DNA of 64,000 bases from an uncultured Bacilli bacterium (GCA_934168205.1 CAKPMX010000001.1:510603-574602); one strand, 5' to 3'; shown: positions 473 to 7,612, numbered from the stretch's first letter. Program-made: numbers and translations. Notes: a model not told the origin generated them from the sequence alone.

Positions 473-473
473 A

Positions 474-498
474 AAGTGAATAAAGTCACTTTTTTTTT
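474..498 (+). terminator. intrinsic terminator after gap
   Basis: Hairpin AAGTGA-ataaag-TCACTT followed by a T8 run. Confidence 0.5.
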
Positions 499-523
499 GA
501 AACATAAAAATTTATGATATAAT
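497..523 (+). promoter_or_regulatory. candidate sigma-A promoter for the essC operon
   Basis: TTGAAA at 497-502, 15-nt spacer, extended -10 TGaTATAAT at 515-523, about 24 nt upstream of the essC start. Confidence 0.3.
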
Positions 524-546
524 AATTATAATAGGTGAGGTGTCAT

Positions 547-3500
547 ATGAGATTATATATTCAAGAACAAAACAGATTAATAAAATATAACCTACCAGCA
601 AAGGTAGATGGTTCCCTATTATTCTCTTATAAGTCATATGATACAGGTATAGAAAACTCAATAAATATTGACTCAAATCAAAATAATTGGATTTTAAAGA
701 GTAATGGAAATGTAAACATTGTCGGAACAAATGCTAACGTAACAGAAGCAGTACTATCTGACTACATATGTATTCCTGTGTCAACTCTAGGGCATCCAGG
801 ATACATATGTATGTTTTGTTTACCATCAATTGAAGAAGAGTCACTTAATTTAAGTACAGAAAAATTAAATCAAATAACAATAGGAAAAAGTCATGATAAT
901 AACATAGTTTATCATCAAAACATGATGTTTGATAAACATGCCATAATCTTTAAAAATAATGACATCTGGTACGTATCACCAGCTGTTCAAAATGAAAACT
1001 GCTATTTATATTTGAATAGTGCCAGAATAACAAATCCAACACCAATGACTGTTGGAGATGTAATATTTATGAACGGATTAAAAATAGTTTGGATGAAATC
1101 GTTCTTCAAACTATCTATGAATAAATCATTATATGAATATGCTGGATTAACTCCAGTTAATGATAATGTTCTAGCAAGTAACGAGGATATTACAGAAGTA
1201 AGCGAAGCTGAAAGTAACGTATCTTTATATAAAGATGATGAATATTTTTCACATACACCAAGAATCAGAAGTGTACTAGAAACTAAAGAAGTAAATGTTG
1301 AAGCCCCTCCAGGTAAATTTGTTAGTAATGAGGAAATGCCTTTAATTTTAAGTTTGGGTACTAGTTTAACCATGTCAGCAATGTCATTTATGAATATATA
1401 TTCTATTTACGATAATATAGTAAATAAGAAAATGGATGTTTCAACACAAGTAACTGGAATAATCACTTGCTCAACAATGCTTATAAGTTCATTGTTATTA
1501 CCTTTCTTAACAAAACGTTGGCAAAAGAAATCTTTAAAAAGAAAAGAAGCAAAACGTCAAGAAAAGTATGGAGAATACTTACGAAAAAAAGAAGAAGAAA
1601 TACAATTAATATTAAAAAAACAGTCACAAATAATATTTGAAAATTATAGTGATTTAACAGGCTGTAAAAATATAATAGCTAATCGTACCAGAGCTTTATG
1701 GTGTCGAGAAATAAATGATGAAGATTTTATTAATGTCAGACTAGGAATTGGTAGTAGACCTGCCCTTCTAAAAATAAATGCTCCAGAAGAAAAATTCTCT
1801 TTAGAAGATGATAATTTATATCAAATGGTATGTAGTATAAAGAAGAAATACGAAAGACTTCAAGATATACCAATAACATATAGTCTAAAAGAAGAACCTG
1901 TGTCAGCACTAATAACAGTTAGTAAGTATAATGATGCTTTTATAAATAGTATTATGCTACAATTAATAACTTATCAAAGTCCATTAGATTTAAAATTAAT
2001 CATTATTACAGATGAGAAAAACGCTGATAAATGGAGTTATACAAGATATTTACCACATTGTTGGAGTGATGATAAAACTACCAGATATTTTGCATCAAAT
2101 CAAGAAGATTTGAAAAAGCTATGTCAAATATTAGATGAAGAATATGTAAATAGAAAAACTAAGAAACAGGAACGCGAACAAGAACAAAGAGAAAAAATCA
2201 AAGAAACCGTAGAAGAACACGCAATATATGATTCATATTATTTAATTATCACAGATAATTTTTTAGATTTAAAAAACTTTAAATTCACAAATGATTTGCT
2301 AGAAAATCAAAATAACTATGGTTTTTCAATGTTGATAATCGAAAACGATATGAAACACTTACCAAAGGAATGCCAAAAGTTCGTATGTATAAATGATGGA
2401 GAATCTGGAATATTCTCTGAAAAAATCAAAGAAGATGAAATGATTAAGTTTAATGCTGAATATGACAGTACTTTAGATATGAGAAAGTTAGGAAATTTAG
2501 TAAGCAACATTCCAATTCAAGGAAAGGATGCAGAACAAGAGCTTCCTAATATGTTACCATTCTTGGAAATGTACAATGTTGGTAAAATTGAACAGTTAAA
2601 TATTAGAAACCGTTGGACAACTTCCGATCCAATAACAACATTACAAACTCCCGTTGGAGTACATAAAAATGGTGAATTATTTAAATTAGACTTACATGAA
2701 AAGTATGATGGACCACATGGACTTATTGCCGGTTCTACTGGATCTGGTAAATCTGAATTTATAATAACTTATATCTTATCGATGGCCATTAATTATGATC
2801 CAGATGAAGTACAATTTGTCTTAATCGATTATAAAGGTGGAGGCCTAGCTGGAGCCTTTGAAAACCGTGAACAAGGAATATCTATTCCACATCTTGCCGG
2901 TACAATAACAAACTTAGATACAGCTGAAATGAACAGAACTTTAGTTTCAATAGAAAGTGAATTAAAAAGAAGACAGAAAAAGTTCAATGAAGAAAGAGAA
3001 AAAACTGGCGAAAGTACAATGGACATCTATAAGTATCAAAGATTATATAGAGAAGGTGTCATAAAAGAACCTATTTCTCATTTGTTCATTATTTCAGACG
3101 AGTTCGCCGAATTAAAATCACAACAACCAGACTTCATGAATCAATTAATATCAACCGCTCGTATTGGGCGTTCTTTAGGAGTTCACCTTATTCTAGCAAC
3201 ACAGAAACCTTCAGGAGTAGTTAACGATCAAATCTGGTCAAACTCAAAATTTAAAGTGTGTTTAAAAGTACAAAGTAAATCAGACAGTATGGAAATGTTA
3301 AAAAGACCTGAAGCTGCTAGCATAAAAGAAACAGGTAGATTCTATTTACAAGTAGGCTATGATGAATACTTTGATATTGGACAGTCAGCTTGGTCTGGAG
3401 AAAGATATACACCTGTTGAAAGAATCGTTAAAAAAATAGATGACTCTATAGTTTTTGTAAATGATTCAGGAGAAACAGTAAAAAGAATAAATGATGCTCC

Positions 3501-7054: not shown

Positions 7055-7068
7055 AAAGGAGAAAAAAT

Positions 7069-7527
7069 ATGGCAATAACAATGAGTGGAGCTACAGTAGA
7101 TAGTAGTAATAGAGAAACATTATTAAACTCTGAAGTTGATAAAAATGTACTAGGAAATAAAGTTAATAACCCTTTTTCAGGTCCTTTGTTAACTAGTTTT
7201 GTTAGATCTGGGACATCAGGCCTTGCCGGTGTTACTAGCGAATTTGCAACAGCAGTATCTGCTGCAATTGACAAATATTGTCAAAACATAGAAAGTATTT
7301 TATCAAAATTAGAGGCTATAGACTCTAAAAGTGCGTTTAAAGGTTCACAAATTGATGGAGCTCTTGCAAACTTTGTTGAAGGTGTAAAAAGTAGTGCTTT
7401 AAGTTACTTAAGTAAATTAAAGGATGCAGAACAGCAAATTGTTGAAAGTGTACAAAAAGCATACGCTACACAAGATACAGATATTTCTAGTAACCTTAAT
7501 TCTGACACTAGTTCATTATCAAACTAG
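7069..7527 (+). CDS. hypothetical 152-aa protein, possible secreted T7SS substrate
   Basis: RBS AAAGGAGAAAA; helical core with S/T/N-rich ends; last gene of the essC operon. Confidence 0.4.
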   Translation: MAITMSGATVDSSNRETLLNSEVDKNVLGNKVNNPFSGPLLTSFVRSGTSGLAGVTSEFATAVSAAIDKYCQNIESILSKLEAIDSKSAFKGSQIDGALANFVEGVKSSALSYLSKLKDAEQQIVESVQKAYATQDTDISSNLNSDTSSLSN

Positions 7528-7539
7528 GAGGAGACTGTG

Positions 7540-7572
7540 TAAAAAAGAGGGCAACTTCTTTTTTTTTACCAA
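7540..7572 (+). terminator. weak A/U-rich hairpin plus T9 run (possible terminator of the essC operon)
   Basis: AAAAAGAG-ggcaac-TTCTTTTTTTTT. Confidence 0.3.
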
Positions 7573-7612
7573 TAAAAATGCTATACTTTATATGAATAAG
7601 GAGAATTAGCCT

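Follow-up and report, generated by a model that had tools for sequence, protein, structure and literature searches.

The locus described here raises the question of what a set of secretion-type genes is doing between two genes of glycolysis, and whether so short a set could make up a working system. It lies in a window of 64,000 nucleotides (the whole stretch of DNA analysed; GCA_934168205.1, CAKPMX010000001.1:510603-574602) from an uncultured Bacilli bacterium, where eight tightly packed plus-strand open reading frames (ORFs) occupy positions 547-7527, between gap (stop at 472) and pgk (start at 7613). An earlier note on this DNA, made from the sequence alone, had described a 7-kb operon of seven or eight tightly coupled genes and had taken it for a stripped-down or modular type VII secretion system (T7SS) locus; the ORFs number eight, and profile, structural and comparative evidence agree with that description. 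Together they are very probably a genuine T7SS-type cassette, recently and cleanly inserted between gap and pgk, and its layout, which was not found described in the literature, is best read as a new minimal T7SS variant. With gap identified by its Gp_dh_N and Gp_dh_C domains, the genes that follow it are these:

547..5172, plus strand: EssC, 1541 aa, with an ATG start at 547; an identical product is already on record.
5162..5416, plus strand: YukD/EsaB-like ubiquitin-fold protein, 84 aa, with an 11-nt overlap with the EssC stop.
5429 or 5420..5740, plus strand: p106a, a helical protein of 103-106 aa, gene 1 of triplet 1.
5752..6066, plus strand: p104, a WXG100 protein with WTG at residues 45-47, middle gene of triplet 1.
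6054..6356, plus strand: p100, a helical protein, gene 3 of triplet 1.
6435..6755, plus strand: p106b, a putative remote WXG100-superfamily hairpin without a WXG motif, gene 1 of triplet 2.
6755..7054, plus strand: p99, a WXG100 protein with WEG (W49 and G51), middle gene of triplet 2.
7069..7527, plus strand: p152, with a probably disordered N-terminus, a hairpin and a tail, final gene of triplet 2.
7613..8791, plus strand: pgk (PF00162, E 1.6e-140).

Gene calls on the parent 559-kb metagenomic contig gave the same eight genes, with the ATG of EssC at 547 and the 84-aa second gene. The ORFs abut or overlap, as had been claimed (overlaps of 1-13 nt or gaps of 3-14 nt, with a 78-nt gap at 6357-6434 as the single exception), and the order of essC, then yukD, then substrates does differ from that of the Staphylococcus and Bacillus loci, the canonical loci taken as controls (B. 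mycoides pBMX_1 and a record from S. suis) having the order esxA-esaA-essA-esaB-essB-essC. At 6338-6380, in the sole sizeable intergenic gap and at the boundary of the two triplets, 22 nt from the 3' end of the p100 gene are duplicated in tandem. All eight genes are under purifying selection (ratio of nonsynonymous to synonymous substitution rates, dN/dS, of 0.04-0.5), and the base composition of the cassette resembles that of its flanks in a window with a G+C content of about 29%. For comparison, about 90 related EssC loci (36-99% identity) were collected by a protein search and by scans of a genome collection and of metagenomes; all of them come from metagenomes or metagenome-assembled genomes, and the named ones are labelled "Bacilli bacterium". 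L-numbers denote the loci compared, with or without the cassette.

EssC aligns with positions 5-1292 of the 1296 of the NCBIfam equivalog of Firmicutes EssC (TIGR03928), scoring 946 bits against a cutoff of 778, and its closest solved relative is YukB of B. subtilis (9qks, E 3.5e-118), EccC5 matching at E 6e-36. It carries a forkhead-associated (FHA) domain at residues 114-177 (PF00498, 26.6 bits, cutoff 20.7; the first FHA copy is not resolved by the Pfam scan) and two predicted transmembrane helices at about residues 262-284 and 302-320, so that a full-length EssC with an FHA-like N-terminus and two transmembrane helices, as claimed, is what the gene encodes. The Pfam FtsK_SpoIIIE profile (PF01580), which the earlier note had proposed for a search, matches it too. 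The three P-loop domains of the same claim hold for the fold, by homology, and not for the motifs: D1 is the sole domain with canonical Walker motifs (Walker A GSTGSGKS at 729, Walker B LFIISDE at 846), D2 is of the GxxGxGKE type (GQPGTGKE at 1076), and motif inspection finds no P-loop in D3. Across 83 clade members there is no conservation of the phosphothreonine-binding residues of the FHA domain (the Arg after the conserved Gly and the Ser of SxxH), as is likewise the case for EssC of the T7SSb subtype (Garrett et al., PMC11217815), and there is no kinase or phosphatase gene in the cassette. The protein is about 30-35% identical to EssC of cultured organisms (tblastn) and is strongly constrained (dN/dS 0.05); unlike in the S. 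aureus essC variants, its C-terminus does not co-vary with the variable downstream genes, and identity there is 93-97%.

The assignment of the second gene depends on fold. The 84-aa protein has no Pfam match by itself, its family profile finds nothing in the PDB (best E 0.68), and fold comparison alone succeeded: the AlphaFold2 (AF2) model, built with 48 homologues, has beta-grasp topology (pLDDT 94.9), and its best PDB match in Foldseek is the ubiquitin-like (Ubl) domain of EccD5 from the ESX-5 complex (TMq 0.79-0.80), followed by ubiquitin/NEDD8 and the Ubl domain of EccD1. The YukD family (PF08817) is matched by 6 of the 60 family members, and the proposed YukD/EsaB-like ubiquitin fold is therefore borne out by the model, the EccD5 match and these orthologues, and not by Pfam on the window protein. 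By ORF clustering the gene adjoins EssC in at least 83 of the 90 related loci (dN/dS 0.04-0.05). In B. subtilis the FHA and DUF regions of YukB grip YukD between them, and YukD promotes the assembly of YukB with YukC (Oka et al. 2025, PMC12637312); this would account for a near-invariable EssC-YukD pairing and for an FHA region that is kept without EssB.

Six small helical proteins follow, at the upper end of the five or six that had been counted, and the EssC1 clade (that of the window's EssC) keeps the same six genes as two triplets, p106a-p104-p100 and p106b-p99-p152. The family profile of p104 matches solved structures over their full length, EsxA (3zbh) at 7e-11 and B. anthracis EsxB and S. 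aureus EsxA at 4e-9, with a range to 1e-8, and its Trp is kept in at least 90% of 36 members; that of p99 matches S. aureus EsxA (2vs0) at E 2.9e-7, and its W-x-G (W49, G51) is invariant in 19 orthologues. As a single sequence p104 gives weak Pfam and NCBIfam WXG100 matches, and the single-sequence Pfam WXG100 scores of p104 and p99 are below the gathering cutoff. p106b is linked by hhalign to the p104 family (96.6% probability) and to that of p152 (95.8%), and its relatives include 4 of 18 with PF06013 matches and one with LXG; p152 is linked to p106b (95.8%) and to p99 (88.5%). Judged by their profiles, p104 and p99 are clear WXG100 proteins, and p106b and p152 putative remote relatives. For p100, an alignment of 16 orthologues keeps the Pro at the turn and not W-x-G, no Pfam family is matched, and the hhalign probability to the p104 family is only 68%, so that its WSG appears to be a chance match and not a conserved motif. 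The claim of three W-x-G proteins (WTGDS, WSGIK, WEGQA) therefore stands for p104 and p99, with their EsxA/EsxB profile matches, and falls for p100. p106a is conserved at the same position in 17-18 loci (dN/dS 0.08-0.3); it matches neither Pfam nor, by profile, the PDB, and hhalign does not connect it with any of the other small families.

The architecture of p152 comprises a probably disordered N-terminus of about 55 residues, a helix-turn-helix hairpin with AFKG at the turn, and a tail rich in Ser, Thr and Asp; in the single-sequence AF2 model residues 1-55 have pLDDT below 50, and the hairpin at 57-150 has 75-84. An exhaustive search of 1.84 billion sequences returned 126 representatives related to it, nearly all stand-alone proteins of 130-200 aa and none fused to a toxin. 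Against the PDB, the p152 and p106a family profiles retrieve only generic helical proteins. No DUF3130- or DUF3958-type matches were found among the small proteins, and the cassette has no toxin-immunity pair, LXG toxin or immunity gene; the exported products would therefore be the small proteins themselves. Between strains with 97% identical EssC, the synonymous rate dS is 0.5-0.9 in p99 and p152 (up to 0.9 in p99) and 0.1-0.3 in the neighbouring genes, with raised values also in p106a and p100 of L004, a mosaic within the cassette that indicates allelic exchange. The lack of a toxin-immunity pair, together with this turnover of p99 and p152 between strains, suggests that the small helical proteins are functional exported products.

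How the cassette came to its place can be read from the loci that lack it. In three congeners, whose Pgk is 90, 85 and 83% identical to that of the window, gap and pgk are 87 nt apart with no cassette between them, in a gene order shared with the window (uvrA, holin, lgt, cofD, whiA, clpP, PRK, gap, pgk, p172, LPG synthase, GT4, tpiA, spo0A, DUF4143, gpmA, dinB, rpsJ), so that the cassette is a clean lineage-specific insertion (about 473-7540), and the arrangement is not universal among close relatives. In the more distant relative L024 gap also adjoins pgk, and strains with 97% identical EssC (L002, L004 and L008) share the insertion. When the junctions are aligned, homology with the empty site ends at the gap stop (472) and resumes at about 7541 with the old gap terminator and an unchanged pgk leader. 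No integrase or transposase was found in the cassette region (gene and Pfam scans), nor were boundary direct or inverted repeats (repeat search), a tRNA target or a deviant composition, and searches of plasmid and phage collections returned only distant EssC proteins (30-37% identity), leaving a plasmid or phage vehicle unsupported. tRNA and Rfam scans of the window found nothing. The signals at the two ends of the inserted segment are the following:

470..498, plus strand: terminator-like hairpin with a T9 run, directly after the gap stop (fold -8.2 kcal/mol, z = -2.7).
497..523, plus strand: promoter-like element, TTGAAA (497-502) and an extended -10 TGATATAAT (515-523).
534-542, plus strand: ribosome-binding site GGTGAGGTG, 5' of the EssC start.
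7541..7568, plus strand: ancestral gap terminator AAAAAAGAGGGCAACTTCTTTTTTTTT (AAAAAGAxGGCAACTTCTTTTTTTTT), folded, now 3' of the cassette and followed by the unchanged pgk leader.

The last of these differs little from the terminator found immediately after gap in the empty-site loci L094, L095 and L096. The hairpin at 470..498 belongs to the inserted segment and has no counterpart in L094 and L095; it is too AT-rich to pass the terminator scan. The element at 497..523 is the top plus-strand match in the promoter scan, and in 17 related cassette loci in unrelated contexts the EssC start is preceded, at a distance of about 25-40 nt, by a TGnTATAAT/TATACT box with a T-run hairpin ahead of it. 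This recurrence is better promoter evidence than the consensus scan, since the latter stays at background level. Of the earlier claim of a promoter-like element after the gap terminator, the element is thus upheld by its recurrence and not by the scan, and the old terminator is the one now at 7541..7568. The cassette is an autonomous transcription unit with its own promoter, placed upstream of the old gap terminator, and is not part of the glycolytic operon; the idea of a locus embedded in a core metabolic operon has to be given up.

The glycolytic cluster is interrupted twice more further on, over positions 8802-15195 of the window. Three genes part pgk from tpiA, encoding a 172-aa protein of unknown kind, a membrane protein resembling LPG synthase, and a glycosyltransferase of the GT4 type; tpiA is in turn parted from a gpmA-like gene by spo0A and the gene of a DUF4143 ATPase. 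Both interruptions are common to all relatives examined and are older than the cassette. Two sister species (L095 and L096, positions 1-179 of each) have a WXG100-like gene that ends ahead of uvrA, at a distance of about 215 nt; in the window genome this place is taken by uvrB, and, as far as these sequences go, a second T7SS-related insertion may lie between uvrB and uvrA in those species.

Away from this site, the number and order of the cassette genes are conserved at 45-99% EssC identity in unrelated neighbourhoods, and related cassettes occupy many different housekeeping or sporulation neighbourhoods (in 66%-identity relatives the cassette follows eno and precedes secG-rnr). L005 has one triplet in duplicate, and one subclade has a changed order together with a lipoprotein of about 550 aa and a DUF4176 protein. 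In L007, L013, L018, L019 and L021 the protein of about 550 aa, with a lipoprotein-type signal and HExxH, is encoded directly after the YukD-like gene, and the DUF4176 protein at the end; the former is a candidate secreted or anchored metalloprotease. A full-length EssC 35% identical to EssC1 was also seen at 10001-14581 of L099 (MT835518.1), an unverified "Bacteriophage sp." scaffold from human faeces, which is probably a misassigned bacterial contig.

What these loci lack is the remainder of a canonical system. Neither Pfam and NCBIfam scans nor phmmer and hmmsearch searches found EssB, EsaA or EssA in the 64-kb window, in line with the earlier report of no EssA, EssB/YukC, EsaA/YueB or YueC there, and none of the three lies within 10 kb of EssC in the roughly 90 related loci. 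The proteins of the two control loci were searched with phmmer and hmmsearch against six-frame ORFs of the window and 98 loci (1.7 Mb in total). The controls detect each other between Bacillus and Streptococcus (EsaA at 1e-61, EssB at 4e-59, EssA at 8e-7); in the window and the 98 loci the best E-value was 0.057 for a two-sequence EsaA profile, 0.14 for EssB (B. mycoides and S. suis) and 1.6 for EssA, a small divergent protein that could escape, its control cross-match being merely 8e-7. No multi-pass, large or EssB-like membrane protein family recurs beside EssC in the roughly 90 loci. Large EssC neighbours considered as EsaA or EssB were rejected by eye (lookalikes of P-type ATPase, SMC, ABC transporter, HerA-like ATPase, PrkC/PrpC and acyl-CoA ligase), the PrkC/PrpC pair of L064 belonging to a housekeeping rlmN-prpC-prkC block. 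The extra components of T7SSc-j (the kinase TsxD, the PPM phosphatase TsxF, the FHA protein TsxJ, the Ig-like TsxI, the beta-propeller TsgL, the AAA+ protein TsfV and the EspG-like TsxG) are found neither in the cassette nor in the Pfam annotations of flanks and relatives.

Garrett, Higginson and Palmer (2024) defined the subtypes T7SSa-j from RefSeq, with an ATPase, a WXG100 protein and, almost always, a ubiquitin-like protein as universal parts, and the supplements of their paper make no mention of Erysipelotrichales-like or "Bacilli bacterium" genomes (PMC11217815); no paper on T7SS in RF39 or Erysipelotrichales-like bacteria was found. The cassette has this universal trio and an FHA-bearing EssC of T7SSb type, with a different gene order and none of the listed subtype-specific parts. 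With T7SSb (Ess of S. aureus, Yuk/Yue of B. subtilis) it shares an EssC with an FHA region, two transmembrane helices, a DUF and three FtsK-like domains, a free YukD/EsaB-like protein, WXG100 proteins encoded alongside, and FHA phosphothreonine residues that are not conserved. It differs from T7SSb in that EsaA, EssA and EssB are missing from the cassette locus, the window and 98 related loci, in that EssC precedes YukD (canonically esaB is upstream of essC, with essB between them), and in having six conserved small helical proteins instead of one EsxA and no LXG toxin or immunity gene. T7SSg of Acetivibrio and Paenibacillus is also relatively simple (two WXG100 proteins, the ubiquitin-like TsgB and an ATPase), but its TsgC lacks FHA, and it has the beta-propeller TsgL and always stands beside Tad pilus genes, none of which is seen here, whereas T7SSf of Clostridia resembles the cassette in its FHA-bearing ATPase, ubiquitin-like protein, WXG100 and possible occurrence at more than one locus per genome, and differs in its PPM phosphatase, DUF6382-FHA membrane protein and TadZ-like AAA+ protein, which are absent from the cassette and its relatives (PMC11217815). 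In LXG-Lap1-Lap2 and in the EsxB/C/D-type complexes of T7SSb, too, small helical proteins related to WXG100 are encoded side by side in twos or threes and are thought to form bundles for export, although the small proteins of the cassette carry no toxin domain and the relatives of p152 are stand-alone proteins of about 150 aa. Finally, the 84-aa protein is structurally closest to the Ubl domain of EccD (T7SSa, ESX-5/ESX-1; TMq about 0.8), which there is the N-terminal domain of a polytopic membrane protein, whereas the protein here is free, as in T7SSb.

With regard to the organism, the nearest named Pgk, 85% identical, is that of "Mycoplasma sp. CAG:877", which belongs to GTDB genus CAG-877, family CAG-611, order RF39 (PMC8035907), and the source lineage is probably this order of uncultured, small-genome Bacilli. 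RF39 comprises uncultured gut bacteria of small genome size that are related to Mycoplasmatales, and many of its members are predicted to keep peptidoglycan without standard teichoic-acid synthesis and several penicillin-binding proteins (PMC10868615; PMC7301438). Close homologues sit on contigs of up to 1.1-1.3 Mb, and the window has sporulation-type genes (spo0A, spoIID and cwlD).

A second EssC-YukD locus, absent from the earlier note, is present in the window at 40688-45947, between cwlD and spoIID, where 11-12 metagenomic relatives have it too:

40688-45262, plus strand: EssC2, 1524 aa, 41% identical to EssC1, with FHA (E 7.6e-11) and FtsK_SpoIIIE.
45272-45529, plus strand: YukD-like 2, 42% identical to the first YukD-like protein.
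45539-45742, plus strand: p67, a helical protein of 67 aa, whose family is linked by hhalign to the p104 WXG100 family (90.8%).
45735-45947, plus strand: p70, a short helical protein of 70 aa.

After rpsI, at 36959-37942, the window has genes for a membrane protein of 113 aa and for a protein of 213 aa in which an HxH motif like that of M23 peptidases is seen by eye (with no Pfam match), and in several relatives a 113-aa membrane protein and a protein of about 215-240 aa directly precede the EssC2-type gene; the pair could be helpers of the EssC2 system, or merely syntenic. Downstream of the EssC2 locus an Abi_2 (abortive-infection-like) gene at 48265-49227 adjoins a gene for an HtrA-type protease, a pairing seen in about 12 relatives. 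At the end of the window (55143-63930) a RecD-like helicase is encoded, together with a 344-aa protein of unknown kind and the N6_N4 methylase and Res helicase of a type III restriction-modification pair.

Taken as a whole, the explanation that we consider probable is an autonomous minimal T7SS cassette at about 473-7540, to which gene identities, folds, insertion boundaries, conservation and purifying selection contribute as direct observations. Its working would be as follows. One sigma-A-type promoter with an extended -10 would drive the eight genes, with transcription using the old gap terminator. EssC, by homology with T7SSb, would provide both the ATPase and the channel in the membrane; its subunits, each with two transmembrane helices, would probably form a hexamer, D1 alone appearing catalytically complete. 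The ubiquitin-like protein would be clasped by the FHA and DUF regions of EssC and would stabilise the assembly in the way that YukD stabilises that of YukB. The cargo or co-secreted adaptors would be the six small soluble helical proteins, in two triplets each centred on a true WXG100 protein, and these would probably leave the cell as helical-bundle hetero-oligomers recognised by the C-terminal domains of EssC, p99 and p152 being presumably swapped between strains by recombination. The arrival of the cassette would be recent and its point of entry exact, after the stop codon of gap and before the terminator of that gene, with neither gap nor pgk disrupted. Secretion activity, the stoichiometry of the complex and its independence from other membrane parts are what we infer from these comparisons. 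In this RF39-like lineage the system most likely runs without EssB, EsaA and EssA, a point that we hold a little less firmly than the explanation as a whole but still on the side of the probable, and the reduced cell envelope might make a wall-spanning EsaA unnecessary.

Several points weigh against such a reading. Each subtype of T7SSa-j lists at least one further core component beyond the universal trio (PMC11217815). EssB, EsaA or EssA could be encoded elsewhere in the genome, outside the DNA searched, and small components are hard to detect, as phmmer with canonical EsaB also missed the YukD-like proteins. We know of no experimental precedent for a three-part T7SS. p106a and p100 are without a demonstrable family, the structure of p152 is a low-confidence single-sequence model, and the promoter and terminator consensus scan gave a total that is not above shuffled background in this AT-rich DNA. 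The main rival follows from the second of these points: the cassette would hold only the ATPase, its Ubl partner and the substrates of a split T7SSb, with EssB, EsaA and EssA scattered elsewhere in the chromosome. An EssC above the T7SSb equivalog cutoff would fit this, as would a retained FHA region, which in T7SSb also contacts EssB (PMC12637312), the ease with which small components escape sequence searches, and the coverage of about 74 kb of the 559-kb contig; yet none of the roughly 90 related loci, in many contexts, keeps a linkage to EssB, EsaA or EssA, the six genes form one operon in canonical systems (as in the two control loci), and this one genome has two separate EssC-YukD loci, neither of them with the three proteins. 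We regard a split system as unlikely.

Less probable by far, and in our view quite improbable, is that the gap-pgk cassette is an accessory module plugging into machinery organised by EssC2, possibly with the small membrane protein and the M23-like hydrolase. It is true that the position of EssC2 is fixed in 11-12 relatives, several with the two candidate helper genes directly before it, and that the EssC1 cassette is mobile and strain-variable, but EssC1 has its own YukD-like partner and full-length transmembrane and ATPase regions, the candidate helpers in the window are 2.7 kb from EssC2 with an opposite-strand gene in between, and the flanks recovered with EssC1-type loci (flanks only) show no EssC2-type locus. 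That the ATPase is instead an FtsK/SpoIIIE-type translocase of DNA or another substrate, acting in segregation, conjugation or sporulation beside unrelated small genes, is close to refuted: the FtsK_SpoIIIE domain, the sporulation genes and the place of EssC2 between cwlD and spoIID might point that way, but the FtsK match scores 59 bits against 946 for EssC, the protein aligns over its full length with EssC and YukB, and its linkage with T7SS-type ubiquitin-like and WXG100 proteins is constant. The missing canonical partners could also mark the decaying remnant of a formerly complete locus, the least credible of these readings and one contradicted by the selection and synteny data, as the eight ORFs are intact with dN/dS of 0.04-0.5, their order is kept at 45-99% EssC identity, and at the gap-pgk site the cassette was recently gained, not lost. 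The autonomous cassette thus remains the preferred explanation, and its boldest form, which falls just short of an even chance, is a self-sufficient three-part T7SS (EssC, Ubl and WXG100-type proteins), the simplest known, in which EssC alone would build the channel in a reduced envelope; it would be widespread and diverse in RF39-like gut Bacilli, often in two copies per genome of about 1-1.5 Mb, and would relocate as a promoter-to-terminator cassette between housekeeping intergenic sites without integrase, repeats or duplication.

Which parts of a T7SS are indispensable and which component forms the channel in Firmicutes are open questions, and to our knowledge the sole T7SSb core structure so far (YukB-YukC-YukD) gave no closed hexamer. 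If the reading preferred here is true, a natural system that has kept EssC with its ubiquitin-like clamp and nothing else would give structural studies and reconstitution a minimal machine to start from, and a subtype would be added beyond T7SSa-j, from genomes that RefSeq-based surveys did not sample. The base-precise comparison of empty and filled sites documents one way for a secretion operon of 7 kb to be fitted into a streamlined genome, behind a gene and ahead of that gene's terminator. Abundant uncultured gut bacteria of RF39 type would gain a dedicated export route for strain-variable small proteins, and these exported proteins would be candidates for interaction with the host or with neighbouring cells.

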